A stretch of 64,000 nt of DNA from Escherichia phage fEgEco12, in the sequence record PP777464.1; one strand, written 5' to 3'. The position numbers were made by a program, and so were the translations under genes. Under the pieces are notes generated by a model. It ran no database searches, was not told where the DNA came from, and worked only from the letters and a program-made list of their open reading frames with translations. Of the stretch, positions 2,866-54,683 are shown piece by piece (within the stretch, counting starts at the first letter, position 1; every line of letters starts with the position of its first letter).

Positions 2866-2981
<116 letters not shown>

Positions 2982-2985
2982 AAAT

Positions 2986-3071
<86 letters not shown>

Positions 3072-3088
3072 CAATTAAAGGTTAAACC

Positions 3089-3249
<161 letters not shown>

Positions 3250-3253
<4 letters not shown>

Positions 3254-3410
3254 CACATGAAGAATGGATGAATGACATTAATTTTAGATATTCGGGTATC
3301 GGTAAATGGCTAAAGTATCATTGGGAATTCATTTCAGAGCCGCATCTGTATGATAAACTTATCAACGATCCAGCATATGAAATGTACTTAATTGAACTAC
3401 TGGTACGAAT

Positions 3411-3414
<4 letters not shown>
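3250..3414 (+). CDS. small protein, MTHEEW family (copy 2)
   Basis: 54-aa ORF, ATGA overlap with copy 1. Confidence 0.4.
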
Positions 3415-3583
<169 letters not shown>

Positions 3584-3585
3584 AG

Positions 3586-4006
<421 letters not shown>

Positions 4007-4011
<5 letters not shown>

Positions 4012-4027
4012 CTAAATAGTTCAGTAC
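4007..4027 (+). repeat. 21-nt repeat CTTGACTAAATAGTTCAGTAC, copy 2 (no -10 box)
   Basis: identical 21-mer also at 3586, 4078, 4847. Confidence 0.8.
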
Positions 4028-4066
4028 CAAGGAGATTAATATGTTTAAAGATGAACGTCCAGATTT

Positions 4067-4107
<41 letters not shown>

Positions 4108-4109
4108 GA

Positions 4110-4440
4110 ATTCCACAATCAGACGTATATGGTGTAAGTTACGTCGATGCAATCCAGAACAAGATCTCTGGTACTCTAGGAAGTGGTGAATGTTAACCTA
4201 GACGGGTTTGATAATTGGACGATAGGCAATTATTACTTGACTAGCAGGTTTAAACTAGAGGTGACTATCCTTCACCAAACTGGAAAACCGGATGGACTTT
4301 TATTTAAAAGGGTAAGGCGTGGAAATATGTTTACAGTAGTTGCTTTTAGTAGCCTGTACGCCCCACGTCAAGGTAGCCGAAAGGCAAGTTAAAACGGGTG
4401 GTTATAAAGCTTAATTAACAGCGGCGTTTAAAAGCGTCAC
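4110..4440 (+). ncRNA. candidate small stable RNA (promoter-driven, poor coding potential, ends in hairpin plus T-run)
   Basis: locally GC-richer; only a weak GTG-initiated ORF (4183-4392); T-run at 4445-4451. Confidence 0.25.
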
Positions 4441-4469
4441 CATCCATTTTTTTAATTAAAGTTGGTGAT

Positions 4470-5289
<820 letters not shown>

Positions 5290-5302
5290 ATAGGAAATTA
5301 AA

Positions 5303-5488
5303 ATGCAACTTTTAATTCTTTCAATATTGTATATTATTATAATGGTTCCGATATCAATACGTTTAATTACAGTTGAACGATTTTTATCGAAACATGGAAA
5401 TAGATCTATGATCTTTGTACCAATCGGGTTGATATTGTTTGGTATATTTTCATTTATAATGGGAATTAACGCTACATTCATTTCATAG
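5303..5488 (+). CDS. small membrane protein
   Basis: 61 aa, two hydrophobic segments. Confidence 0.45.
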   Translation: MQLLILSILYIIIMVPISIRLITVERFLSKHGNRSMIFVPIGLILFGIFSFIMGINATFIS

Positions 5489-5497
5489 GAAACAAAT

Positions 5498-5755
<258 letters not shown>

Positions 5756-5763
5756 GAATTTAA

Positions 5764-6165
5764 ATGAAAAAGAATGACTTGATCAAAATGCTTCAAGAGA
5801 TTGACGGCAATCCAGAGATTGTTATTTGGAATGGATATGTCGATGATTATATGAACATCGAAAAAGGCTTGACTAAAATCACTCTAGTCAAAGAAACTGA
5901 ACAGTTCCTTCTGGAAGCATTAGTGCACGAATGGTGCAAACGTAACAATACATTCGACATTCCAGAAGATCAACGAACTAAGATTGCAGAACAAGCTAAA
6001 AAACTTCATAAGAAACGTGAATACGATTTCCAGAACCCACATGTTACTGAAGACGAATTCAATCACTGGTACGGTAAAAAGAAATTGACAAAATATGTCA
6101 TTTCACCTAAACTACGTGGTAAGACTTCACTTGGTGTCTTCAACGCCGCTGACTTAAACTACTAG
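5764..6165 (+). CDS. hypothetical protein (N-terminus paralogous to 6178 ORF)
   Basis: MKKNDLIKMLQ versus MKAKDLIKILQ. Confidence 0.55.
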   Translation: MKKNDLIKMLQEIDGNPEIVIWNGYVDDYMNIEKGLTKITLVKETEQFLLEALVHEWCKRNNTFDIPEDQRTKIAEQAKKLHKKREYDFQNPHVTEDEFNHWYGKKKLTKYVISPKLRGKTSLGVFNAADLNY

Positions 6166-6174
6166 CGGGTATTA

Positions 6175-6442
<268 letters not shown>

Positions 6443-6487
6443 GATTCCCGATTCAGTAGCTTATAAAGCAGTTCCGTGTGTGCCTAT

Positions 6488-6540
<53 letters not shown>

Positions 6541-6541
6541 T

Positions 6542-6579
<38 letters not shown>

Positions 6580-6598
6580 AGAGGTACTTCGAGTATGC

Positions 6599-6724
<126 letters not shown>

Positions 6725-6726
6725 TA

Positions 6727-6816
<90 letters not shown>

Positions 6817-6887
6817 TGCCAAACAGCTTGAAGAACTTTGTAGTGCTGCACCTATGCCGACACTTGGCTTAATCAAGTTGATGCGTA

Positions 6888-6929
<42 letters not shown>

Positions 6930-6980
6930 GCCTCCCCTCAATGCGAAAGAGTATAGAGACTTGTTGGTTATCTTACTTCT

Positions 6981-7063
<83 letters not shown>

Positions 7064-7066
7064 TCA

Positions 7067-7139
<73 letters not shown>

Positions 7140-12147: not shown

Positions 12148-13305
12148 TTATGCGTTATAACCAACAATGACTACAGTACAGCCAAATGGTTCAACAACTT
12201 TTAATACAACATTATCATCGGCATCTAGTTCAACTTCACTTAGTACAACGTGATTGTCTTCAGCATAGACTTGAACTTGTGGGAGGATTTTACCATGTTC
12301 ACTGGCAGGAATGGACAGTGTGTACATAGAATCACCATCATCTACCCAATCACTATCAGTATACGTGTTGTGATATGGAGTGGTGTGTAAGGTTTTACCA
12401 ATAATACTCAATGAGATTGGAGCATCATCAGTTTGGTACACAGTAATATTACCGCTAGGATCTACAATGAGGTCTACTCCAATTTGGAATAAATCACCAC
12501 TGTATGCTTGTAGAGCAAGATACTCACCACGTTCATGCACAGTAGCTGGTACAGTTGCCATGTACATACCATCGGACGTGTACTCAAACTGAGATAGAAG
12601 TACTGAAGTAACGAAGTCAATATCTTCGCCGCTTTCTAGTATATCAAATTCAATAGTTTTGGTATTATATATGTCAGAAGTGAGTATGATGGTTCCTTTA
12701 CCGGATTGAGTAATTGGATCAACTGGAATACTAAAAACATCATCAATTATTTCAGTTGTGAAGTACTCGGTTCCGTCAGGAAGTATAACGGTAATACGCA
12801 TTCCAGTTGTATCAATGGCTGAACCTGCGTTGAATAGGCGACCACCTACCAAATCATCACCTACGAACGTTGGGAACATAAGGATGTTGTCTATATCTCT
12901 ATCTATAATCCCGCATTCAGGGGTGTACATATTATATAGTGTTTGTGAACTACCTAGAATTGTTTTGTGCAAAAGAAACTTATAAACAAACCCAGTAGGA
13001 TCTGATTCAAGTTTAGCATCTGAGTATCCTCTTACGAAAAAAGAGTTCTTTCTTATTTCACTTAGGATTTGGTCATTAGTTTTGTTGTAGTTTAATTGAT
13101 ATCCTTGTATATCCTTTGTTGTAATTTGTACTTTACGATAAATTACATTACTTACAGGATCAAGTAAATCATATAATCTATGGCTTCTCTGACGATAGAT
13201 TCGAACATTTTTGAGTTTAGTCCCATCGTTGAGAATTGCACCATCGACTACATATCCACATTCACCGAACTTATATTGTCCAGCAGCAGCAATCGATCTT
13301 GACAT
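12148..13305 (-). CDS. hypothetical protein (only minus-strand gene outside the cassette array)
   Basis: 385-aa ORF, GGAGGG RBS, TATAAT-containing AT box upstream. Confidence 0.65.
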   Translation of the reverse strand: MSRSIAAAGQYKFGECGYVVDGAILNDGTKLKNVRIYRQRSHRLYDLLDPVSNVIYRKVQITTKDIQGYQLNYNKTNDQILSEIRKNSFFVRGYSDAKLESDPTGFVYKFLLHKTILGSSQTLYNMYTPECGIIDRDIDNILMFPTFVGDDLVGGRLFNAGSAIDTTGMRITVILPDGTEYFTTEIIDDVFSIPVDPITQSGKGTIILTSDIYNTKTIEFDILESGEDIDFVTSVLLSQFEYTSDGMYMATVPATVHERGEYLALQAYSGDLFQIGVDLIVDPSGNITVYQTDDAPISLSIIGKTLHTTPYHNTYTDSDWVDDGDSMYTLSIPASEHGKILPQVQVYAEDNHVVLSEVELDADDNVVLKVVEPFGCTVVIVGYNA

Positions 13306-13421
13306 TCATCCCTCCATTGGTATAATTATTATAACGTATTTATTCTAGATAGGTAAAAAAGCACCTTGACTGAGTTGTGTTTTTGACGTATACTTAAATG
13401 GAATATCAATAAGGGGATTTT

Positions 13422-16065: not shown

Positions 16066-16487
16066 GGGGATACAATAAGATTTGTATTTTTGTATTTTTA
16101 GTTTGTGCAATCAATACATTTGGATATTACTGTACTGAAAACAACATTTCATATGGTTTAAATCCTTTGTGGTTTACAATTGCCAATGTAGCACAAATTG
16201 GTATTGCTGTTATGTCTGCACTTATGTTCTGTCCAATTGTCACTATGGATACTGATCATGAAAGGCTTGGATTTATCCGTGATACTGGAGACGAACCTTA
16301 CAGTAGATTGATTGTGTTGTATCCATTTATTGTTATTTTAGGTACTAACATCCAACTTGGGTCTTTATCTAATAGTGTTACTTCAGCAGCCATTACAGTC
16401 TTTGCATTCACATTTTTTATGGTACACAAATCAGTACTCAAATGGCACATCACCAAAATGGCAGAGAAAGGTACGGAAAACAGTTGA
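16062..16487 (+). CDS. integral membrane protein
   Basis: 141 aa, multiple hydrophobic segments. Confidence 0.5.
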   Translation: MRGYNKICIFVFLVCAINTFGYYCTENNISYGLNPLWFTIANVAQIGIAVMSALMFCPIVTMDTDHERLGFIRDTGDEPYSRLIVLYPFIVILGTNIQLGSLSNSVTSAAITVFAFTFFMVHKSVLKWHITKMAEKGTENS

Positions 16488-16546
16488 CGTGAGTTATTGA
16501 GTCATATATAATTATTACATCAAAACGGGGAAATGGTAAGGAACTT

Positions 16547-16798: not shown

Positions 16799-16872
16799 AA
16801 GTATTTGACTTAAACAATAACATGGAGTACAATGTGCTCCTAATTTAATTATCAGCTAAAAAGGAAAACATT

Positions 16873-17133
16873 ATGAAATCTATTCTCGTTGCAGTTAACC
16901 TGGTTGCTTCCCCATCTTTTAACTTCAAACAAGTTGTTGCTGATAATCTGAAGAAGATCTGTCCAAACGCTGAATTGACTTTCTGTGTGTTTGATTCAGA
17001 AAAAGTAACTAAAGTTGATCTAAACTATCTTTTGAACGAAGTACAAAGTATTTCTGGTGAAAGTAATTTGAAAGTACTGAATACGGTTGCTGATGACTAT
17101 GATGATACACTGGTAATTTCGGAGAAATTCTAA
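16873..17133 (+). CDS. hypothetical protein
   Basis: 86-aa ORF after AAGGAAA. Confidence 0.5.
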   Translation: MKSILVAVNLVASPSFNFKQVVADNLKKICPNAELTFCVFDSEKVTKVDLNYLLNEVQSISGESNLKVLNTVADDYDDTLVISEKF

Positions 17134-17138
17134 ATCCA

Positions 17139-17558
17139 ATGCTTAGATTTATACATTACTTAATCAGTAAGTTCTTTGGTTATTATACTATTGAAGGTAA
17201 AGCTACGCTTGCACATAAAATCTTTGTAGCATTATGTGTGGGTGATTATGACGTATTGAATAAGTACTGTAAATCTAAAGCATGTATTGACATAATGGCA
17301 CTTCGTATCTATGAGTGTCAGTTCAATAGATATAATTTTTACCAGTACAGGTATGATAAAGATGATTTTGATAGCATTGAAATGCTAAAGAATTTATGTA
17401 ATAATAAAAAGAATATGCATATATCTGAATTTGTTGCATTGTATTTTTATTTAAAAAGTTCATTATACATGAATACACTACAACGCTTCGATACTAGAAT
17501 TAATGTATTCAACGATAAAGAATTTTATATCTATGATAAATTTTTAGATAAGGTTTAA
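17139..17558 (+). CDS. hypothetical protein
   Basis: 139-aa ORF. Confidence 0.5.
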   Translation: MLRFIHYLISKFFGYYTIEGKATLAHKIFVALCVGDYDVLNKYCKSKACIDIMALRIYECQFNRYNFYQYRYDKDDFDSIEMLKNLCNNKKNMHISEFVALYFYLKSSLYMNTLQRFDTRINVFNDKEFYIYDKFLDKV

Positions 17559-17559
17559 T

Positions 17560-18057
17560 ATGACAACTGTTTATATTGATAAACGCTTGGGAGTATTACT
17601 TACTGATTCAAAAGTGACATCAACTGAGCAACGTTCATTTTTGAACCTATTCCCGTTGAAACCAAAACTTAGTTATGGTGTAGTTTCACAAAAAACATTG
17701 TATGTACACGACCGACTGTTTAGTGCTTGCGGTGAAGTTAGTGAAATTAACAAAGTACTGAGATACTTGATTTCACAAGAGACTGTGATACCAGACCGCA
17801 AGGCGAGTTGTCACTGTGTTCTTGTGTCAAAAGATTACATCATTCACTTAATCGTTAATAAGGGTAAGTTTGCCAAGAAGATTGATTATCTACATAATGA
17901 TTATACATTCTTTATGGGTAGTGGTGGTGAATACATGCTTGATGCAGCAGTACATGAAGAGTATAATACTCTTCTTGATAAGGTATTTGATACCTTCATG
18001 GATGTTCATAACCATGATATCTATACCGATGATAATATTAATGTATACCGTTTTTGA
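17560..18057 (+). CDS. hypothetical protein
   Basis: 165-aa ORF. Confidence 0.55.
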   Translation: MTTVYIDKRLGVLLTDSKVTSTEQRSFLNLFPLKPKLSYGVVSQKTLYVHDRLFSACGEVSEINKVLRYLISQETVIPDRKASCHCVLVSKDYIIHLIVNKGKFAKKIDYLHNDYTFFMGSGGEYMLDAAVHEEYNTLLDKVFDTFMDVHNHDIYTDDNINVYRF

Positions 18058-18079
18058 TTTCATTCATTAGGAGAAGTAA

Positions 18080-19048
18080 GTGAAAAAGCTTGATTTAAAT
18101 GCAATTTCTGAAGAAGTACTGGATGAGTGTTTTGCTAGTGAAGAAGTCAACGTATTAGAGGCTCTTGATTCCGTCGAAGAAGAAGAAGAACATGACGGTC
18201 ACAAGTTTGAGAAACCAAAAACAGGTATCAGCTTAACTCGCCCTAAAGGGATAACGAATGAAATGCTCATCCAAGCAGTGCGTGATGGTATTGACGTTGA
18301 AAAGAACATTGACCTTTTGGTTCGCTACAACTATCCAATGGTAGTAAGTGTTGCACGTAAGTGTACATGTTTTATCCCATTTGAAGATAAGATTTCTTAT
18401 GGTGTTGAAGGTTTAATGCGAGCAATTCATACGTTCGACACTACCAAAAATGTTAAGTTCATTACATATGCAACAACAACTGTGTACATGACAATCTATA
18501 ACGAAAGTGCAGATGCTAATTATCTAGTGCATTTCCCACGTTATATGAGTGTTAATAACATTTATGTGAAACGTTGTGTAGAAGAGTATCAAAGGAAACA
18601 TGGTAAATACCCAACTCCTGAGATGGTGTCAAAAGAGACTGGTATTGAGATTCAACACGTTAAGAATTGTCTAACTTACAATAACACTTATGTAGCATTG
18701 AATATGAAAATGAGTAATGATTCAGAAAGTACATTATCTGACATTGTTACTTCAGTTGAACCTGATTACAACTTAGGCGTAGAAACTGTCAGTACCCCAC
18801 TGGTACAAAGTATTGCAGAAATGATGAGTAACCTATCTGCCAAAGACCGTGAATTGATTGAACGTGTACATGGTATTGGTTCTTATTCTGAACCAGAAAC
18901 GCTACGAGAAATCATTGAGAGTGGTTTTGAAGATGAGAAGGGTAAGGTCATGACTGCTCGTTCTTCATTGCACCGTAAGTACTCTGAAGCAATGGAACGA
19001 CTGCGTAAGATGGTTAAGACAAAAGGTTATGAGTTCGAAGATTTTTAA
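18080..19048 (+). CDS. sigma-70-family RNA polymerase sigma factor-like protein
   Basis: GTG start after AGGAG; region-2-like GVEGLMRAIHTFD...FITYATT; region-4-like C-terminal HTH. Confidence 0.55.
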   Translation: MKKLDLNAISEEVLDECFASEEVNVLEALDSVEEEEEHDGHKFEKPKTGISLTRPKGITNEMLIQAVRDGIDVEKNIDLLVRYNYPMVVSVARKCTCFIPFEDKISYGVEGLMRAIHTFDTTKNVKFITYATTTVYMTIYNESADANYLVHFPRYMSVNNIYVKRCVEEYQRKHGKYPTPEMVSKETGIEIQHVKNCLTYNNTYVALNMKMSNDSESTLSDIVTSVEPDYNLGVETVSTPLVQSIAEMMSNLSAKDRELIERVHGIGSYSEPETLREIIESGFEDEKGKVMTARSSLHRKYSEAMERLRKMVKTKGYEFEDF

Positions 19049-19055
19049 GATTAAA

Positions 19056-19081
19056 GGGTTGACTTCGGTCAGCCTTTTTTT
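19056..19081 (+). terminator. rho-independent terminator, UUCG tetraloop hairpin plus T-run
   Basis: GGGTTGAC-TTCG-GTCAGCC then TTTTTTT. Confidence 0.75.
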
Positions 19082-19089
19082 ATGGGACA

Positions 19090-19610
19090 AATTTATTAAT
19101 GGTGATACAATGATCTATGTACAATCACAATGACAGTACTGGTACTGACAATCTTCCCCTACTTCACTTGAAAATGTAAAGGATAGATGAGCTTTTCATT
19201 GTAGCGAACAGCAAAAGAAACCCGTTAGATGTGGGCATAGTTTGAACCCCTCACGGCAATGCGGCTGTATAAAGAACCACGTTAGGATAGCTGGTGGTTC
19301 CTCGATAGACATATAAGGATAACACCTTACGAATTATCTAAGGGAGAGTTATCGAATTTTGTACAGGAAAGTTGCGTCCAAAATTTGAGTACTCACATTA
19401 AGTATTTGATTGCATAGATACTTAATGAAGATACACTATGTTTAAAAGTGTAGACCGTCATATGAAACTGAAGTAGAGAGAAACAGGATGACCCGCTTTC
19501 GCACTCGTTATGAGTAATCTTCAATGCAATAGCTCTGATACCATCAGCGTCAAATTTCCCTCCGTGCGGGGGGGAAGAAAAATCCCTTCCTCAAATCCCG
19601 TCAATATTAA
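19090..19610 (+). ncRNA. candidate structured noncoding region (no ORF of 60 aa or more, several hairpins, locally GC-richer)
   Basis: for example GAACCAC-13 nt-GTGGTTC at 19274-19300 and a CCCTCC...GGGGGGG element near 19555. Confidence 0.3.
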
Positions 19611-19615
19611 AAGTC

Positions 19616-19644
19616 CTTGACAGTTATGATTCATTCGCGTAGAA
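19616..19644 (+). promoter_or_regulatory. sigma-70-like promoter TTGACA-N17-TAGAAT
   Basis: TTGACA 19616-19621, TAGAAT 19639-19644. Confidence 0.5.
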
Positions 19645-19709
19645 TACGTAGTATTAGAAGCGAACAGACATCTCGAAGAGATGGATGATTAACCACTAAG
19701 GAATATCTA

Positions 19710-19919
19710 ATGAATTCAGTAATCTTTTTAATTATTGCTCTTTCACCACAATCTGGTGTACAAATCACCCCAATGAATTCAATGAATCAATGCATTGCAG
19801 TACGTGACAGTACGTATGAACAAGTAAACAGCGTTTCACTTAGAACAGTTGGTGAAGAATTAATGTGGTGTTACAATAGTAATACTAAAGAAAAACTAAT
19901 TGTTGGACAAACAGAATGA
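19710..19919 (+). CDS. small protein with N-terminal hydrophobic segment
   Basis: 69-aa ORF. Confidence 0.5.
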   Translation: MNSVIFLIIALSPQSGVQITPMNSMNQCIAVRDSTYEQVNSVSLRTVGEELMWCYNSNTKEKLIVGQTE

Positions 19920-20143
19920 GTTATGGTGTTCGTTTTGAGATTCGTTCTATTGTTATCAATGACGAGAAACAAGCATCGTTGGATGGCGATATACGAGAAC
20001 TATATCTATCATGTATCCGTGCGAAATCTGAAGCAGATGCATTATCACAAATGATTGGTTTTAATTTCTTTCATGGATACTATTTGGTACGAGTTATCGA
20101 AGTTAAAAAAGTCACTTTTGAGTGTCTTGCTGGAGAAATATAA
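19916..20143 (+). CDS. hypothetical protein
   Basis: 75-aa ORF. Confidence 0.5.
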   Translation: MSYGVRFEIRSIVINDEKQASLDGDIRELYLSCIRAKSEADALSQMIGFNFFHGYYLVRVIEVKKVTFECLAGEI

Positions 20144-20145
20144 AA

Positions 20146-20939
20146 TGAGCACTATAGATGAATTGATTCGCCGGAATTCAAAATACTACGACCCATCAGA
20201 AATTGTCGGCAACATTACTAAATCTGAGTTCGGACCAAATACTCGAAAACTCATTCATGTAATGTCACGTGATGGCTTTAAATGTGATTGTTGTGGTGAA
20301 TCCAATGTGGTATTCACTTTACATAAGCACAGTACTAAAGACCGTTATAAATTCAGACCTTATGTACTTAAAGGGAAACGCCTTGTACGCATGACGTTAG
20401 ACCATAATGTACTGGACTGTCTTCAGGGCGGTAATGATAAAGAGAACATGACTGCATTGTGTGAGGATTGTAACGCATTACGCCAGCATAAGTTTGCTGA
20501 GTACAGTGAGTTTAAGCACTGGTATCATAACGCTGATCGTTCTATCGAGCCTGACGTTAACTACTGCTTCATTGAGTATATTAAGAATGCTAAAGATACA
20601 TACATTCTTAAATCAATGTCACCTATTACAGTGTTCCCTGAGAATCTATTCAGTACTATGCAGCGTGATTTTAAACGTGGTATCATTAATGCATTCAAAC
20701 ATTTAGACAAAGGTATCAAGCACTTTGAGGTGCAATGCTTAAATGAAGGAATGAATCGTTTAGTACAAATTTACATGAAATCATTTATAGGTGTTGACAC
20801 CGCACGTCTACCAGTATATAATTACTTTATTGAAAGCGAAGAAGGTGAATCTCTTCGTGATTATGGTGAAAGATTTAATAACAAAGTCTTCGCTGCAATA
20901 TCAAACGAGATTCATTACTATAAACCATATGTAATTTAA
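20146..20939 (+). CDS. HNH endonuclease-like protein
   Basis: CDCCG...LDHNVLDCLQGGNDKENMTALCEDCNALRQH; start moved to ATG 20146. Confidence 0.55.
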
Positions 20940-26995: not shown

Positions 26996-27187
26996 ATGTT
27001 GATTTATCAATGTGGTAACATTCGTGTTATGCAGCATCCCTACTTACAAATCTTTGATGTGCAGCAGTATATGGAAGGTGATGATCCAAGAACCTATGGT
27101 CGTAAGTATGATTACTTCACTGTAAAGCAGTGTCATAACATCAAAGAAGTACGACAATTAGTTCAAGAACTTCAAAATAAAGGTTGA
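26996..27187 (+). CDS. hypothetical small protein
   Basis: internal ATG of track ORF 26966. Confidence 0.4.
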   Translation: MLIYQCGNIRVMQHPYLQIFDVQQYMEGDDPRTYGRKYDYFTVKQCHNIKEVRQLVQELQNKG

Positions 27188-27213
27188 CTTCGGTCAACCT
27201 TTTTTGTTATAAT
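27181..27213 (+). promoter_or_regulatory. fused terminator hairpin plus early promoter (PeSL-like cassette)
   Basis: AGGTTGAC-TTCG-GTCAACCT then T-run; TTGACT inside stem, TATAAT 18 nt downstream. Confidence 0.65.
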
Positions 27214-30272: not shown

Positions 30273-30383
30273 TTTGACTTTGGGACAACCATTTCTTACG
30301 TGATATAATCTTAAGTGTCTGTAGAAATAAACAGCACATGAAGTATAAATATTAAAGTAATTTATCTCTTTAAGGAGTATGAA

Positions 30384-30767: not shown

Positions 30768-30773
30768 TTAAAA

Positions 30774-30807
30774 GGGGTTGACTTCAGTCAGCCCTTTGTC
30801 GTATAAT
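30774..30807 (+). promoter_or_regulatory. fused terminator hairpin plus early promoter (PeSL-like cassette)
   Basis: GGGGTTGAC-TTCA-GTCAGCCC; TATAAT 30802-30807. Confidence 0.6.
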
Positions 30808-31586: not shown

Positions 31587-31614
31587 ATAAATATAGTCAT
31601 AGAGAATAAACAAT

Positions 31615-33126
31615 ATGAAATCTATGGAGAGAAATCAAATGCCAGGTCAATTTACTGATAAAAATGGCGGGAACATGGCAGGTCACTCTGATAAATGGAG
31701 TGAACGCAATCGTCGTCAAAATAGCTACCAAGCAGGACAGGGGTCACGTGGTTCACGTAATCAAGGGACAGGTTTAGCTGGTAAGGCAAACGCAGAAGCA
31801 GGTGAAGTTAAGAGTACTGAGAACATGACTGAGCTAGAAAAGCTACGTTATGTTAACTCATTAGGTCTTCTTAACGCAACACAGAAACAACGCCTTGCTG
31901 ATATGGAACGTGCTGAGAAAGAACAAGCAGTTCCTAAAGAAGAACCAAAACCAGAAGCTCCTAAAGCAGCTAACCCTGTTAAAGAGTTATCTGATAACTT
32001 AGGTAAGATCTTTGCTAACAAACCACAGTTGATTCAGGGTATTGTCAAAGCACTACAGGCAGTTCCTAAAGAAGAACTCAAAGGTAAAGCACAAGCTGTA
32101 CTTGATGCAATGAAAGGTAATAAGAGCACTGAACCTACTGAAGTATTCAGTACTATCATGCGTGCACTTGAAGGTACACACAAAGAAGATTCGAAAGAAC
32201 CTGAACAGGGTGAAGCAAGTCTTGATGGTATTCTTAAAACTTTTGATAGTATTGGTAAAGCAGACCGTGCTAATGCCCAGCAAGTCAAGAATGTACTGGC
32301 TAAACTTGAAAACCGTTTAGAAGGTAAAGACGATAAGGTTAAGCTCGTATCAGATGCAGTTAACAGTGCACTTAAATCTTATGTACAAGGTGAGAAAAGT
32401 CGCTTCGTAACAGCTATGGATGCTGCATTCAACACTATGAAAAAGTATGAAGCAGAACATGGTGAGAAAGTGACACCTGATGGATATCTACTACGTAAAG
32501 ATGAAGAAGGTGCAGTTGAACAGAAAGATGTTGAGCCTGAGCAAGAAGATCTACCTGATACCGTTGATATGGATGGATACATTCATCGTCCTGAGATGGA
32601 AGAGTTTGGGTCAGATAAAGAAGGTTTTGAACATGCAATGGCAGTATATAAAGCATTAGTTAAAAATCCAGATTATGCTAACCGTTTTGTTGACGAGTTT
32701 GATAGTGCATGGAATAACTATAAAGACAAAGGTTATGACTTCCCTGCTGAAGCTGCATTCTTTGAACTTGGTAAACTATTAGCTAAACATGGAATTGACG
32801 TTGGTTCATCTGATTCTGATGGTATGGAAGAAGAACATCTTGAAATGACTGATAAATCAATTCATGAACTTCAAAAGTTAATGATGTGGATATCCGAGAT
32901 TGGTAAAAAAGCAGGTGCTGATAGTAAAAGTATCAACAAAAATATTAGTTGGATTAAAGATAATGTTGGTAACAATGCTCGTAAACTTCAAAAGGCTTGG
33001 GCTGATTTAGTAAATGGTGCAGATGATGTTGACATTGAATCACCAGAAGCATATGAGTATGCACTAACTACACTTGATAACTCATTCAAAGAGTACGACC
33101 GTGGTGTTGGAAAGGATAAAAAATAA
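31615..33126 (+). CDS. hypothetical protein, 503 aa, K/E-rich
   Basis: largest + strand ORF in window. Confidence 0.65.
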   Translation: MKSMERNQMPGQFTDKNGGNMAGHSDKWSERNRRQNSYQAGQGSRGSRNQGTGLAGKANAEAGEVKSTENMTELEKLRYVNSLGLLNATQKQRLADMERAEKEQAVPKEEPKPEAPKAANPVKELSDNLGKIFANKPQLIQGIVKALQAVPKEELKGKAQAVLDAMKGNKSTEPTEVFSTIMRALEGTHKEDSKEPEQGEASLDGILKTFDSIGKADRANAQQVKNVLAKLENRLEGKDDKVKLVSDAVNSALKSYVQGEKSRFVTAMDAAFNTMKKYEAEHGEKVTPDGYLLRKDEEGAVEQKDVEPEQEDLPDTVDMDGYIHRPEMEEFGSDKEGFEHAMAVYKALVKNPDYANRFVDEFDSAWNNYKDKGYDFPAEAAFFELGKLLAKHGIDVGSSDSDGMEEEHLEMTDKSIHELQKLMMWISEIGKKAGADSKSINKNISWIKDNVGNNARKLQKAWADLVNGADDVDIESPEAYEYALTTLDNSFKEYDRGVGKDKK

Positions 33127-33810: not shown

Positions 33811-33816
33811 AAGAAA

Positions 33817-33850
33817 AGGGTTGACTTCGGTCGGCCCTTTTTGCTATAAT
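33817..33850 (+). promoter_or_regulatory. fused terminator hairpin plus early promoter (PeSL-like cassette)
   Basis: AGGGTTGAC-TTCG-GTCGGCCCTT then TTTTTGCTATAAT. Confidence 0.65.
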
Positions 33851-38032: not shown

Positions 38033-38446
38033 ATGAAGAAGTGTATCACGTGTAATATTGAAAAAGACATTAGTGAATTTGGTATAAGAAAAGATACTGG
38101 GAAACATAGAAATACATGCAAAGGTTGTAGTAATATTACCAGTAAGAAAACCAGAAATAAAAAAACTGATGTCAAAAAACTTGAAGAAATCAAAAGAAAA
38201 AATAAAGATTTCATGACCAGAGTTAAATCATTTTATGGTTGTAGTATTTGCATGATGAAGTATCCAGAATGTTTAGACTTTCACCATCTTGATCCTAATA
38301 CCAAAGAACATACACCAAGTTCTATGTTCAGTAAAAGTCGAGAATCTATCAAAGATGAAATTCGAAAGTGTATGATTCTTTGTTCTAATCACCATCGCAT
38401 GGTACATTCTGGTAGACTATGTTTGATTGAAAGAAAAAAGGGTTGA
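38033..38446 (+). CDS. HNH endonuclease-like protein with Cys-rich N-terminus
   Basis: CITCN...CKGC; HHLDP...N...CSNHH motif. Confidence 0.55.
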   Translation: MKKCITCNIEKDISEFGIRKDTGKHRNTCKGCSNITSKKTRNKKTDVKKLEEIKRKNKDFMTRVKSFYGCSICMMKYPECLDFHHLDPNTKEHTPSSMFSKSRESIKDEIRKCMILCSNHHRMVHSGRLCLIERKKG

Positions 38447-38472
38447 CTTCGGTCAGCCCTTTTTGCTATAAT
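38441..38472 (+). promoter_or_regulatory. fused terminator hairpin plus early promoter (PeSL-like) overlapping HNH stop codon
   Basis: GGGTTGAC-TTCG-GTCAGCCC then TTTTTGCTATAAT. Confidence 0.65.
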
Positions 38473-39016: not shown

Positions 39017-39022
39017 AGGAAA

Positions 39023-39055
39023 GGGTTGACTTCGGTCAGCCCTTTTTGCTATAAT
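39023..39055 (+). promoter_or_regulatory. fused terminator hairpin plus early promoter (PeSL-like cassette)
   Basis: GGGTTGAC-TTCG-GTCAGCCC; TTGACT 39026-39031; TATAAT 39050-39055. Confidence 0.65.
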
Positions 39056-42397: not shown

Positions 42398-43522
42398 TTA
42401 ATTATCTAAGCCACCAATTACACTGAACTGTGTGGTAACGTCTGAACTATTATCTATGTAAGTTCTTCTACCAACATAATATAGTTGTCCTTTTGCTTGA
42501 ATAAAAGTTACGGTCCCTGTATTGAATGTTATAATATCATTGTATGTAATGTCAGGTGGTAGTGCTGCTGATAACGCAGTAACTTTACTTAATGCAGCAC
42601 TAGTACTACCATTTATACCAGCAGCAATACTACCAGTACCATAGAACTTATTATCTTTACCAATGAATACGTTGGCTGATGCTTGTGTAGCTGATGTTAT
42701 TGCCTTACCAATTTGGAATGCGGTTCCTATGGTGTATGGTGTGCTCCTGGCTGCGTCTATGCTTTGTGTATATCCATCCCCTAGCTGACCATTAACTTTG
42801 TCACCACATGAGTATAGAGTACCATTGAGGCTGTATATGATCCCACGGTTAGAGAAGCTAACAGCTTCTGCATTAGTCCATACTGGTGCGGTGTATGAGT
42901 TTACACGACTAGCGGTAGTTCCTAGACCTAGTATACCATATGTGTTATCACCACATCCAAACCATTGTCCAGAACTGTTTTGATAGAACACTGAACGTTC
43001 TGTTGATTCCATGCGTACAGCATCCACAGCACCACTTTTAACGAACGAAGTTGATGAGGATGTAGTACCAGTACCCAATGCACCATAAGTGTTTGTACCA
43101 ATCGCATAGATTGATCCTAGTGGTGTCATAACACGTATGCAGTTATATCCCAATTGAACTTTACATTCAAATAGGTTGTCCCATATTTCAGGAACAGCAG
43201 AAAATAAATTTGTAATTTCGAACCATGATGTTGTCGAATCAGTTAATCCAATACTGCTTTTGTTTCCTAAAATGAAAACAGTTTTGTCCTTCTTAATTAT
43301 CCATGATGATAGGAAACCTATCTCACAGCTATGAACATTTGATTCTATTTGGGTAATATAATACTTAACTGTGTTATCACCCATGAATGCCGCAGCACCG
43401 GATGCAAAAAGGTTTCCAGTTTGTTTATTTAAAATGTAGTTATTGTTTCCATATACACTAACATCATAAGAACTTTCTTGTTTTTCGTTCCCATAATCAA
43501 ATAACAATACGAAAGGTAACAT
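42398..43522 (-). CDS. cassette protein 15 (last in array): RCC1-like repeat beta-propeller, variant N-terminus MLPFVLLFDYGN
   Basis: GTNTYGALGTG, GDNTYGILGLG, GDKVNGQLGDG repeats. Confidence 0.75.
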   Translation of the reverse strand: MLPFVLLFDYGNEKQESSYDVSVYGNNNYILNKQTGNLFASGAAAFMGDNTVKYYITQIESNVHSCEIGFLSSWIIKKDKTVFILGNKSSIGLTDSTTSWFEITNLFSAVPEIWDNLFECKVQLGYNCIRVMTPLGSIYAIGTNTYGALGTGTTSSSTSFVKSGAVDAVRMESTERSVFYQNSSGQWFGCGDNTYGILGLGTTASRVNSYTAPVWTNAEAVSFSNRGIIYSLNGTLYSCGDKVNGQLGDGYTQSIDAARSTPYTIGTAFQIGKAITSATQASANVFIGKDNKFYGTGSIAAGINGSTSAALSKVTALSAALPPDITYNDIITFNTGTVTFIQAKGQLYYVGRRTYIDNSSDVTTQFSVIGGLDN

Positions 43523-43599
43523 GATAAAATCTCCTTGTGTTATACTTTATTTAATCATTTTATAATGTACAATTTTACAGCGATTTAATTGAGGTACTC

Positions 43600-44250
43600 A
43601 TGAATAAAAGAAGTAAGTTCTATCAAGAATATTTCACTAAACAGAAACGATTCACAAAAAAATACTTTACATCATCCCACCGACCAGTTGCAAGTTACAA
43701 ACGTCCTAATACTAACTATCTTACTGGTGGCAAGTTTAGTGCAAAGTTCGAATTACTTATGCGTGAAAAGAATATCAAGATGCATTACGCAGAGACGAGA
43801 AAAAACTCATCAATTATTTGTTCTGATTTTCTTGAGTACGGTTGTTTAACTTATAAATTCAACGATGTATATTTGTATATTGATGTTGATTGTAACAGTA
43901 CTCGTATGTTTGAGATTTCAATTCACCCAAATCACAACCGTTATATAAACATTAACTTGGTTGATAAAGTACTGATTGGTATATCTAGTACTGATGGTGG
44001 TGGATTTGAATTTATTGCTTCAAAATATGATGAGGACTTTGTACTGTTCCCAGTACTTGATGATGTGAAAGATATTCTCAATTCATTAAAAGGAAGTCAA
44101 TACAAATTATCTGAAGAACAGCTATTTCAGTACTCACTTATTCATGATGATATCGAGATATACTTAGAGTGTGCGAGAATATTGGAGTATCTTTATAATG
44201 AACTAACAACAACTGGTAAAGTGACAGCATTCACATTATATAATATGTAA
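43600..44250 (+). CDS. hypothetical protein, FQYS motif family, embedded on opposite strand inside the cassette array
   Basis: 216 aa; LFQYSLIHDD motif. Confidence 0.6.
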   Translation: MNKRSKFYQEYFTKQKRFTKKYFTSSHRPVASYKRPNTNYLTGGKFSAKFELLMREKNIKMHYAETRKNSSIICSDFLEYGCLTYKFNDVYLYIDVDCNSTRMFEISIHPNHNRYININLVDKVLIGISSTDGGGFEFIASKYDEDFVLFPVLDDVKDILNSLKGSQYKLSEEQLFQYSLIHDDIEIYLECARILEYLYNELTTTGKVTAFTLYNM

Positions 44251-44257
44251 AAGAAAA

Positions 44258-44276
44258 GCCAGTACATAGTACTGGC
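44258..44276. terminator. GCCAGTAC...TACTGGC hairpin
   Basis: GCCAGTAC-ATAG-TACTGGC. Confidence 0.6.
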
Positions 44277-44282
44277 ATTATA

Positions 44283-45419
44283 TTAAACTGGTGGAGAATT
44301 ATATGGCTCAAATTTATAAGTTGTCGTAGCAGTACCAGCAATGGCGTTGTTAGCTAGTATGTACATAGTCCTGTAGTCGATTACCACTACAGTAATACTA
44401 CCACCAAAAGCATAGTCTGTTATGTTATTAGTGTTGAATGGTAAATTAGATGAACTGGTCCATGTATTAGCTGTTGTGCTATTTGTACCATTGGAATAAC
44501 CTACACTAGATGCACCAGTTGTCCATAAGTTTCCATCATTGAACAAGGAGACATGGTTAGTTGTATATGATTTATTAGGTATAGAACTATCAATTGGTGT
44601 ATTCCAAACTTTAGTAACCCATGTTGTAACTGCTGTATTATTAGTAACGCCATTACCTAATGAACCATTTATTGGTATACCTCTTATATAAGAAGTGTTA
44701 GTACTAGGGTCAACATATCCAAATGTATATGTATCAAATGCAAATTGAAAACAATCAGAACTCGGTAATGTGTACAGTAATGTATATGAAGACGTGTTTA
44801 TTGATGAATTTGTACCGTTCACGCCTTGGTATAAAATACCACTAGCCAATATTTGATTATTATTTTTTGTTATAGTGTTCATTGATGGATATGTTTTCAC
44901 ATCACGCACATCATTAGTCACATATGTTTGTGTTGATAATGCAACGTTACTACCATTACCTATAACCCCTGTATTTGCACCACTCCCATAAAGTGAACCA
45001 TCATTCAAAAGAACCATTGTAACATTACCATTTCCCGTAATTGTTTTAATATTACTAACATCCACCGCAGCAAATACAGTTGATGTTAAATCAGTGAAAC
45101 GTGTATAATGTGATGTTGTGCCATTGATTGGTGTCGCAAAACCAGAATACAAAATTCTATTTTCTTTGGTAATAAGGAATGTGCCAGTAACACCATTTGA
45201 ATGGATATCAACAATATTATCGCCCATTAATACCCAATCACTTACGAATGTTGTTGTACCAGTACCCAACCCATATGTCGTATTGTATCCACGTCCATAC
45301 ACTCTACCATCACTGAGTAATGTTACCACACATTGACCACCACCACCAAGGATAACTTTTTGGATAGTACTCTTTACTTTTATATTCCCGTACTTAACCA
45401 TTCTTGCAAAAGGTAACAT
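44283..45419 (-). CDS. cassette protein 14: RCC1-like beta-propeller, N-terminus MLPFARMVKYGN
   Basis: 378 aa; RGYNTTYGLGTG; no hairpin between it and cassette 13. Confidence 0.75.
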   Translation of the reverse strand: MLPFARMVKYGNIKVKSTIQKVILGGGGQCVVTLLSDGRVYGRGYNTTYGLGTGTTTFVSDWVLMGDNIVDIHSNGVTGTFLITKENRILYSGFATPINGTTSHYTRFTDLTSTVFAAVDVSNIKTITGNGNVTMVLLNDGSLYGSGANTGVIGNGSNVALSTQTYVTNDVRDVKTYPSMNTITKNNNQILASGILYQGVNGTNSSINTSSYTLLYTLPSSDCFQFAFDTYTFGYVDPSTNTSYIRGIPINGSLGNGVTNNTAVTTWVTKVWNTPIDSSIPNKSYTTNHVSLFNDGNLWTTGASSVGYSNGTNSTTANTWTSSSNLPFNTNNITDYAFGGSITVVVIDYRTMYILANNAIAGTATTTYKFEPYNSPPV

Positions 45420-45433
45420 TCTTTTTCTCCTTG

Positions 45434-46582
45434 TTATATTGATGGCATATCCAACACATATGAGTTGCTAGTGATTGATGAATATGTAGAATTTAAACCT
45501 GTACTATAAACATAATCACCTGCCCATAAGAATGTTCTATCCAATGTTGTATGTATTTCAATATCATCATATGATGATAATGATATTTGTGCCAGTGTAT
45601 ATGTAGTAGCATCAATGTTTGAACCAATACCCAAAGTACCATTGTATTGTGATTGGGAGTTTTGACCAGTTGCATATATACCAGATTTGGTTATTAAATG
45701 CTGATTGTACATTGACGTACCTTTAAACAATTTAATTAAATTAGAGTTGGGTGTTGTTATTTGTGCAGGAGCAAGTATTGTTGTTGTAGTGCCACCATCA
45801 CCCAATTGACCATATCGTTGGTAACCACCAGCGTATACCTGTTTAACTCCAGCAGTAGTTTCTATAATAAAGAATGAACCATAGCCAGTAGTATTAAAGT
45901 CTATTATTTTATTTGTACTCAAACCAACATTATATCTAGTAAATGTTGTTGCATTTGCTGAACCACCAGCATTCCCACCGACCATTTGACCACTATAATA
46001 AAATGCACCAGTACTGTCAGTATAAGCCATACAGTTTTCACTACCATATATTTTCACTGGTGTACTGGGGAAACTAGAGGTTATATTCACACATGTATTA
46101 TATTTTGCAGTAGTTCCAGTAATTTCACCATTGTTGTTTTGACCAATGACCCAAACTGTGTCATCTGAACGTATAGCCATTGAGCTATAAAACGAGGATA
46201 CAAATTGTTTAATAAAGGAACCAGGGAGAGAAGTAAGCATACTATTGATTTGTGCACTCACATTGGTCCATGTATTCACAACTGAATTGACACCTGCTGC
46301 TGCACCGGAACCAGAACTCCACCATGATTCATCATTCTTTTTAATCAATGTACCGTTAGCAGAGCAATAAACATCAGCAACTGAACTATTAACTAATATC
46401 CATTCCCTCGCTGCTGTTGTATTACCAGTACCTAGCTGTCCTGCTGCATTACTACCCTTAGCATATAAATCGCCATTCTGCGTTAAAAGCATAGTATGTT
46501 GGTATCCAGTTGACAATTTCTTTATTTTTGGTAATGCTGGTGCTTCATTTCCATAATCAAACATTCTAACAAAAGGTAACAT
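45434..46582 (-). CDS. cassette protein 13: RCC1-like beta-propeller, N-terminus MLPFVRMFDYGN
   Basis: 382 aa; GSNAAGQLGTGN, YGQLGDGGTT. Confidence 0.8.
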   Translation of the reverse strand: MLPFVRMFDYGNEAPALPKIKKLSTGYQHTMLLTQNGDLYAKGSNAAGQLGTGNTTAAREWILVNSSVADVYCSANGTLIKKNDESWWSSGSGAAAGVNSVVNTWTNVSAQINSMLTSLPGSFIKQFVSSFYSSMAIRSDDTVWVIGQNNNGEITGTTAKYNTCVNITSSFPSTPVKIYGSENCMAYTDSTGAFYYSGQMVGGNAGGSANATTFTRYNVGLSTNKIIDFNTTGYGSFFIIETTAGVKQVYAGGYQRYGQLGDGGTTTTILAPAQITTPNSNLIKLFKGTSMYNQHLITKSGIYATGQNSQSQYNGTLGIGSNIDATTYTLAQISLSSYDDIEIHTTLDRTFLWAGDYVYSTGLNSTYSSITSNSYVLDMPSI

Positions 46583-46659
46583 AATTCCCTCCTTTATTCA
46601 TTATACTATATTTAATCAAAAAGAAAAGCCAGCACTCTGTACTGGCATAGTATTAAGGT

Positions 46660-47790
46660 TTAAATATTTTTATAATTAATTTCTACATAGTTACGTTGTG
46701 TTCCAGTATATCCTGGAACATTACCTATATTTCCATTACCTGCACCAAACAGACGTTCTCCGACTGCAAAATATGTCCCATAGAAACAACCATCAAACAC
46801 AGGAACATCATTATAATTTGATATGTAATTATCCATAGAATCCATTCTAGTGTATACTGTCAGAGCTACATTCGTACCCATACCATATGCACCATACGGG
46901 TTAGTACCAGCAACATAATACCCAGTGGGTGTACATATTACTGGTGAATTTGCCCCTGATCTCGTGTGGATAAATCTAAATGTACCTTCAGGTACTGGTG
47001 CTTCTTTACTGAATAATGTTGTAGCTACTACTGGGTAATCAATACCATAACTATTACCACTCAACCACGTTTTACCATCACTATCTTTGAATAATGAACA
47101 GGATTGTGTGCATCCGAACAGATTCAAATTGGTTACATTTGGAAATTTACTAATTTGTGTATATACCAGAACTGTGGTTGCGGCAGCACTACCAAGTTGT
47201 CCACGACCATTATCACCCGCACTGTACATGTACCCATCGGTCTTTAATATTATACTAGCGTTTCCTAAAATATCAAAATCAACAACATCCGTTTGTGTTA
47301 ATGTAGCTATAGGATAACGAAAATTCACTGCCTCACCAGTACCAAATTGACAATTGGTGTTTGCCCCACATCCATATAAGTTGCCGTTTTGCATTAATAT
47401 AAACAAACCTGTTGTCATTTTAATTTTCTTAATATTAAGAATATCTATATCTTGGAATATGTGTGTTACATTTACAAATGTGGTTGAGTTAACAGCACTT
47501 GAACCATAATAAGAACCGTTCCCGCTGCCAAAGAATTCATCGCCTTTTCTGTACATTGCACATAGACTACCACCCCATACATCATCAACCCCAGTGTCAA
47601 TTTGAATAACAGAAGTAACACTAGTTGTTGTACCAGTGCCAAGTTCACCACCTGAATTGTATCCAAAACCATACAAATCCCCACTTTCTGTTAGCACCAA
47701 AACACTGTTATTGGTTGTGCATGAAATCTTTTTGATATTATTAGATGGTCTTTTATTTCCGTACTTAACCATTCTTGCAAAAGGTAACAT
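46660..47790 (-). CDS. cassette protein 12: RCC1-like beta-propeller, N-terminus MLPFARMVKYGN
   Basis: 376 aa; GYNSGGELGTG, GDNGRGQLGSA. Confidence 0.8.
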   Translation of the reverse strand: MLPFARMVKYGNKRPSNNIKKISCTTNNSVLVLTESGDLYGFGYNSGGELGTGTTTSVTSVIQIDTGVDDVWGGSLCAMYRKGDEFFGSGNGSYYGSSAVNSTTFVNVTHIFQDIDILNIKKIKMTTGLFILMQNGNLYGCGANTNCQFGTGEAVNFRYPIATLTQTDVVDFDILGNASIILKTDGYMYSAGDNGRGQLGSAAATTVLVYTQISKFPNVTNLNLFGCTQSCSLFKDSDGKTWLSGNSYGIDYPVVATTLFSKEAPVPEGTFRFIHTRSGANSPVICTPTGYYVAGTNPYGAYGMGTNVALTVYTRMDSMDNYISNYNDVPVFDGCFYGTYFAVGERLFGAGNGNIGNVPGYTGTQRNYVEINYKNI

Positions 47791-47835
47791 ATTTCCCTCC
47801 TTTATTCATTATACTATATTTAATACAAAAAGAAA

Positions 47836-47856
47836 TGCCAGTATCAAGTACTGGCA
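47836..47856 (-). terminator. inter-cassette hairpin TGCCAGTA-TCAAG-TACTGGCA plus T-run on minus strand
   Basis: same hairpin at 49835, 51099, 59557. Confidence 0.65.
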
Positions 47857-47869
47857 TAGTTTTATAGTA

Positions 47870-48979: not shown

Positions 48980-49051
48980 ATTTCCTCCTTTATTCATTAT
49001 ACTATATTTAATACAAAAAGAAAAGCCAGTACTCAAGTACTGGCCTATATT

Positions 49052-49789
49052 TTAGACTGAATTGTTAGGATAATATCTCCCACGTCCCCATATTATTCGC
49101 ACAGCACCACCACCAGCAGCAGTATAAGAAGAATTATCCCATATACTACCACCACCACCATACCTCTTACCAGCACCACCACTACCAGCACCACCATTAT
49201 ATGAACCACCGTAGCTACCACCAATACCATTAGCACCTTGAACAATGATACCAGTACCACCACCCGTACCAATGAACGAGGTACTATAGAATGTACCACC
49301 CCCACCGCCGCCGCCAGCACCATTTTCACCAGTGATTGCATCTCCGTTACCACCTTTACCAGTGTAGCCACCAGCACCACCACCAATGACTGCACCACCA
49401 CTTACACCAGTGTTGCCACCATTACCACCACCATCATTAATAGCGTTAGCAGCTTTTCCACCTAGTCCACCAACCGTATATGCACCAGTGAAGCTAACAC
49501 ATAGTTTTTCAGTTCCACGGTATAAACCGTTTTCAACTGCTGTAGTAGTGTTGGAATGTGTAAGAGAAACACTTAAGTACTCACCACCAGAAACTGGAAT
49601 ATTATTACGCCACGATAAGCCGCCACCAGCACCACGTTGACCACCCGGTGAAATAACACATACTGATATTTCGGTAACGCCAGCAGGAACTGTAAATTGT
49701 GTTGTTCCTATTGCCGTGATTAATTGTTCACCATGTGGCTTATATTCAATTTTATTCCCGTACTTAACCATTCTTGCAAAAGGTAACAT
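49052..49789 (-). CDS. cassette protein 10: glycine-rich protein with the same N-terminal module (MLPFARMVKYGN)
   Basis: 245 aa; irregular GGxGG runs, no collagen GXY periodicity. Confidence 0.75.
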   Translation of the reverse strand: MLPFARMVKYGNKIEYKPHGEQLITAIGTTQFTVPAGVTEISVCVISPGGQRGAGGGLSWRNNIPVSGGEYLSVSLTHSNTTTAVENGLYRGTEKLCVSFTGAYTVGGLGGKAANAINDGGGNGGNTGVSGGAVIGGGAGGYTGKGGNGDAITGENGAGGGGGGGTFYSTSFIGTGGGTGIIVQGANGIGGSYGGSYNGGAGSGGAGKRYGGGGSIWDNSSYTAAGGGAVRIIWGRGRYYPNNSV

Positions 49790-49861
49790 AATTCCCTCCT
49801 TTATTCATTATACTATATTTAATACAAATAATAATGCCAGTATCAAGTACTGGCATTATTA

Positions 49862-54675: not shown

Positions 54676-54683
54676 AATTCCTC

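Follow-up and report, generated by a model that had tools for sequence, protein, structure and literature searches.

An RpoD-like sigma factor and three promoter classes in an Escherichia jumbo phage, with a possible sigma cascade

The 322-residue open reading frame at 18080-19048 of Escherichia phage fEgEco12 (PP777464.1; the whole 64,000-nucleotide stretch analysed is referred to as the window) is a complete RpoD-like sigma factor with regions 2, 3 and 4, preceded by host-type promoters. Besides the host-type promoters there are two other promoter classes, each with its own gene set: a bipartite middle-type class (class M) and a late class with the core TAAATA. A second sigma factor of the gp55 type is also encoded. 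Which factor reads which promoter class we infer from sequence. Tentatively, the RpoD-like sigma would act early to redirect the host core RNA polymerase to class M, and the gp55-like sigma would read the late TAAATA promoters. Somewhat more doubtful is the fuller picture of a three-sigma cascade in a T4-related jumbo phage, in which the RpoD-like tier would also switch on four structured RNAs of ~430 nt.

Escherichia phage vB_Ec-M-J (Asteriusvirus) shares 99% identity with the window; bases 17000-20500 match vB_Ec-M-J (OQ718158, 378.6 kb) at 99.4%, and 121Q and PBECO4-type phages at ~84%. The whole vB_Ec-M-J genome (MJ) served for comparison, window position x corresponding to about MJ position x + 288152. 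The orthologue in MJ, EcMJ_505, is 99% identical and annotated 'RNA polymerase sigma factor', and identity is 59% in 121Q, 39% in RaK2 and 37% in CBB. Sigma factor annotations are already carried by the orthologues in MJ, Turkey3, 121Q (gp167), PBECO4, RaK2 (ORF244), GAP32 and CBB (CBB_513), the RpoD-like sigma is discussed in the CBB paper, and comparative genomics of 'group 2' jumbo phages recorded both a complete and a minimal sigma factor, plus a gp33 orthologue. The open reading frame is a genuine sigma factor, but the gene was already known from near-identical genomes and from comparative studies. The RaK2-like jumbo phages named here have the same gene in the same early-region context, with nothing essential different. 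A literature search found neither experimental tests of the RaK2-like RpoD-like orthologues nor a transcriptome of any Asteriusvirus.

The sigma factor and its early gene context

The features of the sigma locus are as follows.

16484-16512, plus strand: second host-type promoter of the same early gene run, TTGACG-N17-TATAAT
16805-16833, plus strand: nearest host-type promoter upstream of the sigma gene, TTGACT-N17-TACAAT, the same in vB_Ec-M-J
18070-18073, plus strand: Shine-Dalgarno sequence GGAG, 6 nt before the GTG
18080-19048, plus strand: RpoD-like sigma gene, 322 amino acids, GTG start, identified by Pfam, PHROG, phmmer, AF2 and Foldseek
19056-19081, plus strand: intrinsic terminator after the sigma gene, GGGTTGAC-TTCG-GTCAGCC followed by T7, a member of a repeated hairpin family

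The terminator hairpin was read directly from the letters and was not listed by the terminator scan.

Pfam matched Sigma70_r3 (PF04539) to residues 163-225 (1.3e-11; 44.9 bits against a cut-off of 25.3 bits) and Sigma70_r2 (PF04542) to residues 80-142 (2.6e-9; 37.2 bits against a cut-off of 24 bits), and PHROG 351, 'RNA polymerase sigma factor', matched at 2.7e-48. The best matches among solved structures are group 1 and group 2 sigma factors (Mtb SigB at 2.5e-17, SigA, RpoS and RpoD). By phmmer against the PDB, residues 80-320 align with RpoS 94-325 and residues 64-309 with Mtb SigB 97-339; because the RpoS alignment extends to the C-terminus of RpoS, region 4 is covered. In an AlphaFold (AF2) model computed from 29 homologues, residues 1-51 form a disordered acidic N-terminus, followed by confidently predicted sigma2 (60-146), sigma3 (154-199) and sigma4 (234-315) domains, with pLDDT values of 84-91 over residues 60-146 and 85-90 over the C-terminal helical domain (234-315), and Foldseek aligned the model over 262-272 columns to sigmaS/sigmaA holoenzyme chains, with E values down to 5.5e-11. 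The original prediction, made from the sequence alone, of a phage sigma-70-family protein with region-2-like and region-4-like signatures is thus borne out: the assignment is supported by Pfam regions 2 and 3, PHROG 351 and the fold, region 2 being recovered by Pfam and region 4 by phmmer, AF2 and Foldseek. The HMM search proposed with it found region 2, but gave no Pfam match to region 4 at E<=1. Unlike T4 gp55, this protein has all three regions and does not fall into the gp55 family: PHROG 351 is its sole match, whereas phrog_12791 and phrog_234 are hit by another protein, EcMJ_325. It also has the region 4 that is absent from sigma factors of the phiEco32 gp36 type.

Invariant sigma residues are retained across the 29 homologues. 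In the helix-turn-helix of region 4, Arg294 (equivalent to R584) is invariant, and there is an 8-residue insertion between the two helices. Group-1-type promoter-reading residues are not present: two alignments place T, T, M, Y, Y, V, S, H and R at the positions of sigma-70 W433, W434, Q437, T440, H455, E458, E585, R588 and Q589, and these nine replacements imply that promoter specificity must differ from that of host sigma-70. Asteriusvirus phages have a constant recognition helix, (T/K)(A/S)RSS(L/I/V)HRKY, and region 2.3/2.4 is likewise conserved among them; the helix reads TVRGTLHYKF in RaK2 and TSKATLSRRY in CBB and BF. The sigma2-sigma4 architecture is intact across all RaK2-like genera.

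The sigma factor evolves faster than its surroundings, with 59% amino acid identity between the MJ type and the 121Q type against 92% for the primase and ~96-99% DNA identity for the adjacent RNA. No segment is exempt from this divergence, which peaks in the sigma3-sigma4 linker (29% identity). Such fast evolution, and the replacement of key DNA-melting and recognition residues of sigma-70, would suit a protein that is no longer an initiation factor, such as a decoy sequestering core or a regulator of the host. That reading is highly improbable given that all three domains are retained and confidently folded, that conservation within the genus extends to the recognition helix and region 2.3/2.4, and that the residues common to sigma factors are kept by every homologue aligned.

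Upstream of the sigma gene only host-type TTGAC-N17-TAnAAT promoters are found. The nearest (16805-16833) heads the densely packed genes 16873-19048, and others lie further upstream at 13299 and 15118. All 21 host-type TTGAC-N16-19-TAnAAT sites are on the plus strand, in agreement with the earlier statement that many plus-strand genes use host-like promoters. The orthologous region of short plus-strand open reading frames was interpreted as early in the CBB paper. Because it lies behind host-type TTGAC-N17-TATAAT promoters, the RpoD-like sigma gene is considered an early gene.

Several other features of the early region and of host-type promoters were observed. The co-oriented gene immediately 5' of the sigma gene (17560-18057, plus strand) weakly resembles the HslV peptidase family (phrog_1040, 2.8e-6), and its counterpart in Turkey3 is probably the gene annotated there as 'ATP-dependent protease'. 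Six tRNA genes (Rfam) are located in the early region at 2892-7139 on the plus strand. The terminal repeat (OQ718158 1-21525, outside the window) contains ~30 near-identical early promoters, AAAAAGTACTTGCAA-N-GCGTATAATGTTTTACATC, every one of which precedes a tiny open reading frame; they form a distinct TTGCAA subclass of host-type promoters confined to that repeat. Terminator-promoter composites were found on the plus strand at 27178-27213, 30772-30807, 33815-33850, 38437-38472 and 39020-39055, with the layout GGGTTGAC-TTCG-GTCAGCCC-TTTTTGC-TATAAT, in which TTGAC of the 5' arm of the hairpin doubles as a host-type -35 element. The same hairpin, followed by TATAC or TATAA, is among the listed terminators of CBB, and the composite hairpin is therefore conserved across genera.

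Late promoters and the cassette box

Among 7-mers in 274 upstream gaps genome-wide, ATAAATA shows the strongest enrichment, with 33 occurrences against 2.6 expected. (A/C)TAAATA precedes the genes for the major capsid protein, sheath, tube, tape measure, baseplate and tail fibres, and many 'virion structural' genes, and the TAAATA class as a whole stands before about 50, mostly virion, genes. Among 52 non-cassette late promoters, information is found only in TAAATA and the preceding base (A in 31, C in 13, G in 6 and T in 2), the downstream sequence being merely AT-rich. In CBB and GAP32, ATAAATA/CTAAATA was reported at 35 sites before structural genes and likened there to the T4 late promoter TATAAATA. 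The features that bear on this class are as follows.

12148-13305, minus strand: lone minus-strand gene, virion structural (phrog_10468, 4.6e-157)
13328-13342, minus strand: box before the lone gene, TAAATACGTTATAAT preceded by A
31587-31593, plus strand: plain late core ATAAATA before the virion structural gene 31615-33126
42398-60732, minus strand: 15 paralogous RCC1-repeat genes ('cassettes'), starting at 43522, 45419, 46582, 47790, 48979, 49789, 51052, 52266, 53495, 54675, 55877, 57134, 58329, 59511 and 60732
46600-46614, minus strand: example of the cassette box, TAAATATAGTATAAT
43539, 47808, 48996, 49807, 51070, 52284, 53513, 55899, 57155, 58347, 59528 and 60749, minus strand: other copies of the 15-nt box
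191673-192512 of OQ718158, outside the window: gp55-type late sigma EcMJ_325, annotated 'sigma factor for late transcription'

All 15 cassettes open with ATGTTACC (MLPF...), and a GAP32 homologue of their RCC1-like protein was found in virions by mass spectrometry. One cassette (49052-49789) is truncated to 245 amino acids. In 121Q the orthologue of the lone minus-strand gene, gp155, carries the annotation of an Ig-domain structural protein. TAAATA-N3-TATAAY has 14 matches (13 cassettes and gene 12148-13305) against 0.21 expected in shuffled sequences, and TAAATA-N3-TATAA(T/C) sits 25-32 nt before the ATG. The cassette boxes come after a hairpin, GCCAGTAC-N-GTACTGGC, and a T-run, which occupy the position where a -35 element would be sought; no -35-like hexamer was found 5' of the box. 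The cassettes starting at 45419 and 54675 possess neither box nor terminator, abut the preceding cassette and are presumably transcribed by read-through.

Ten of the 14 box copies are near-identical, recently duplicated paralogous sequence (hairpin, T-run and GTATTAAATATAGTATAATGAATAAAGGAGG); the diverged copies at 43539, 55899, 57155 and 60749 and the copy before the lone gene retain only the two hexamers at fixed spacing. 121Q keeps the full box, also 5' of its counterpart of the lone gene, in a flank that has otherwise diverged. The strict TAAATA-N3-TATAAT 15-mer has only 11 copies in the whole MJ genome (cassettes, lone gene and one tail-tube gene), and it was rejected as a general late promoter, TATAAT not being kept in the other ~50; outside the cassettes, only three other genes have an exact TATAAT 3 nt past TAAATA. 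GTAAATAC precedes the RCC1-like gene of GAP32 and the gene beside it, without an exact TATAAT, and the two marks of the cassette subclass, T or G at -1 and an exact TATAAT, are confined to Asteriusvirus. As a separate observation, a host-type promoter, TTGACA-N16-TATAAT (13299-13326, plus strand), serving gene 13422, abuts the late box at 13328-13342 (minus strand) back to back.

Judged by its sequence, the cassette box is a subclass of the T4-type late promoter, with TAAATA as its core: it is a single TATAAATA-like element with no -35, located 5' of virion-type genes. The base before TAAATA, T or G here instead of A or C, sets it apart from the T4 late promoter, as does the exact TATAAT 3 nt downstream. 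T4 gp55 reads TATAAATA without a -35 element, as the (A/C)TAAATA sites before virion genes also lack one, and the T4 late promoter is used by T4-type phages that possess no RpoD-like sigma at all; T4 itself is not known to have one. EcMJ_325 matches phrog_12791 at 9e-153 and the gp55 family phrog_234 at 1e-16, and adjoins homologues of SbcD/SbcC (T4 gp47/46) amid baseplate genes. Because a gp55-type sigma is encoded, and because T4-type phages without an RpoD-like sigma use the late promoter, parsimony gives the TAAATA class, with the cassettes, to the gp55-like factor, which is more probably the reader of the cassette box than is the RpoD-like sigma.

The original prediction had placed an AT-rich box without a -35 element before all 15 cassettes and the lone gene, which holds for 13 cassettes and the lone gene but fails for the other two cassettes, and had proposed the RpoD-like sigma as a possible reader of this box. 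The latter proposal found no support, the TAAATA core being the late word of the whole genome, a gp55-type sigma being encoded, and region 4 being kept in the RpoD-like protein. On that proposal, TATAAT would be the -10 element and TAAATA an upstream extension touched by the altered region 3. The excess of TAAATA-N3-TATAAY over shuffled expectation speaks for this, as do the preservation of exact TATAAT and spacing in independently diverged copies and before the 121Q orthologue of gene 12148-13305, the restriction of exact TATAAT to few late promoters, and the ability of sigma-70-family phage proteins to use single-element promoters, as phiEco32 gp36 does. Against it, TAAATA alone is common to ~50 other late promoters and to the RCC1-gene promoters of GAP32 and CBB; EcMJ_325 offers a gp55-type reader; gp36 lacks the region 4 that the RpoD-like protein has; 10 of the 14 copies are recent paralogues and leave few independent observations; and the early context of the sigma gene contrasts with virion-gene targets. 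On balance this reading is improbable. Reading of the box by the gp55-like sigma is preferred, although the exact TATAAT 3 nt past TAAATA has no account in a gp55-type model, which counts against the cascade.

Middle-type promoters and the structured RNA family

Class M was found by aligning upstream gaps on the -10 element. Its consensus is TG(G/A)GAC-N14-TGnTATAAT, with 20 sites in MJ against 0.94 in shuffled sequences. The sites in the window and the RNA that follows one of them are given below.

19083-19111, plus strand: class M promoter TGGGAC-N14-TGATACAAT, directly past the sigma terminator
19112-19560, plus strand: structured RNA of ~430 nt without an open reading frame, supported by covariation, behind the class M promoter 19083-19111
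30281-30309, plus strand: second class M promoter in the window, TGGGAC-N14-TGATATAAT

Class M precedes the genes for ssb, primase, topoisomerase, exonuclease and other functions in replication and nucleotide metabolism, the gp55-like gene, and all four structured-RNA genes. It is kept at orthologous positions in 121Q and is present in Serratia phage BF and RaK2; its counterpart in CBB is the set of 18 listed 'TGAAACG' promoters, which includes that of the gp55-like gene. Four genera share the extended -10 element (TGnTATAAT) without change, but the hexamer upstream of it varies between genera, being TGRGAC in Asteriusvirus, TGRAAC in CBB and BF, and yTGAAC in RaK2. No fourth conserved promoter word emerged from the analysis of upstream gaps. 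The PA5oct RNA-seq paper reports TTGAC/TATAATA promoters only.

Beyond the class M promoter 19083-19111 are ~600 nt without an open reading frame of more than 45 amino acids, unannotated in MJ and 121Q. BLAST gave 95.8% identity between the window and 121Q over the 455-nt match (~99% by eye from ~19205 onward), far more than the sigma gene next to it shows. There are four paralogues in MJ (307265-307706, 59443-59921, 112068-112564 and 196317-196752), all in annotated gaps, and 3-5 copies per genome at ~70% identity in CBB, GAP32, Serratia BF, and Erwinia, Yersinia, Salmonella and Xanthomonas jumbo phages; the family occurs in RaK2-like phages of at least nine host genera. About ten true homologues were recovered by blastn and nhmmer. 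A scan of IMG/VR with GAAAATGTA-N7-8-GATGAG was too unspecific and was abandoned, most of its 120 loci being chance matches, and ncRNA002 and ncRNA004 of PA5oct were rejected as homologues, having no sequence similarity.

From an alignment of 12 sequences RNAalifold predicted 64 base pairs, 43 of them with compensatory changes. In the model that was scored, one hairpin was exchanged for a pseudoknot helix spotted by eye, giving 12 helices and 66 pairs. This model pairs 96% of cells, where slid controls pair 36-43%, and 46 of its 66 pairs show changes in both partners, compared with 7-13 pairs in the controls; its covariation score of 0.54 compares with no more than 0.10 in controls, and none of 500 shuffles reached the observed values. 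No Rfam 15 family was matched by five RNA copies at either the gathering or the E<=10 threshold. The ~430-nt structured RNA family, which shares the class M promoter, appears to be undescribed. An HNH endonuclease gene (20055-20939, plus strand) lies ~500 nt 3' of the structured RNA, and HNH genes are also found near RNA paralogue c3 in MJ; no exon arrangement suggestive of an intron was seen.

Candidate readers of class M and the order of sigma factors

The RpoD-like sigma is a candidate reader of class M on account of its region 4, of a recognition helix that is constant in Asteriusvirus and differs by genus, and of a precedent that associates region 4 with bipartite promoters: phage 7-11 gp47, which has region 4, reads GTAAtg-N16-aCTA, whereas phiEco32 gp36, which lacks it, reads the single element tAATGTAtA. 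Like the RpoD-like sigma as it is viewed here, phiEco32 gp36 and Salmonella phage 7-11 gp47 are phage sigma-70-family proteins that retarget enterobacterial core; they differ in belonging to small podophages, in their unrelated promoter consensus and, for gp36, in the missing region 4. The class M hexamer varies by genus, and if, as would be expected, region 4.2 of sigma-70 is the same among the enterobacterial hosts, a phage factor must read the hexamer. The residue equivalent to R588 is Ser in CBB and BF, with TGRAAC, and His in the Asteriusvirus phage, with TGRGAC. It is also His in RaK2, which on a covariation prediction should have G at the fourth base of the hexamer; the prediction failed, RaK2 having GAAC in yTGAAC.

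A strong rival to the cascade, in itself rather unlikely, is that class M is read by host sigma-70, regions 3.0 and 2.4 of which fit TGnTATAAT, with a phage activator on TGRGAC, in the manner of MotA/AsiA. The canonical TGn and TATAAT are unchanged across the genera compared, and the failed prediction for RaK2 also favours this reading. In sigma-70 the residues that we take to read TGn (E458 and H455) and the -12 position (Q437, T440, W433 and W434) are replaced in the phage sigma, so that TGnTATAAT of class M fits host sigma-70 better. Textbook T4 middle promoters likewise pair a sigma-70 -10 element with an activator box, and share with class M a non-canonical upstream element, an excellent, often extended, sigma-70-type -10 and an association with replication genes. 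Class M differs from them in having TGRGAC at -35 rather than a MotA box at -30, and neither MotA nor AsiA was detected: tblastn with T4 AsiA gave no match (a weak test), and no MotA-like gene is annotated in the MJ genome. With sigma-70 and an activator reading class M, the RpoD-like sigma would need another task, namely a different promoter set, host promoters or competition for core. The upstream gaps offered no further conserved word as a target for such an orphan factor, and its conservation with intact domains in every RaK2-like genus also tells against the rival.

In the cascade tentatively preferred here, host-type promoters would express the RpoD-like sigma early; this sigma would bind host core RNA polymerase and redirect it to a promoter class with -35-like and -10 elements, most probably class M; class M would then drive the replication and nucleotide-metabolism genes, the four structured RNAs and the gene for the second sigma; and the gp55-like sigma would finally direct transcription from the -35-less TAAATA late promoters, including the cassette box. 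The order would thus be host sigma-70, RpoD-like sigma and gp55-like sigma. Bacillus phage SPO1 uses host sigma for its early genes, then gp28 for its middle genes and gp33/34 for its late genes. The logic of the proposed cascade is the same, with no sequence relationship to SPO1, and in the present phage it is only inferred.

The sigma gene itself adds nothing new, and the question that it raises is what role an RpoD-like sigma plays in phages that also carry T4 late machinery. The present analysis makes that question testable by defining three promoter classes with coordinates, by placing the cassette box in the late class and by supplying concrete templates, among them the class M promoter 2 nt past the T-run of the sigma terminator. 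The structured RNA family next door may prove more interesting than the sigma gene.
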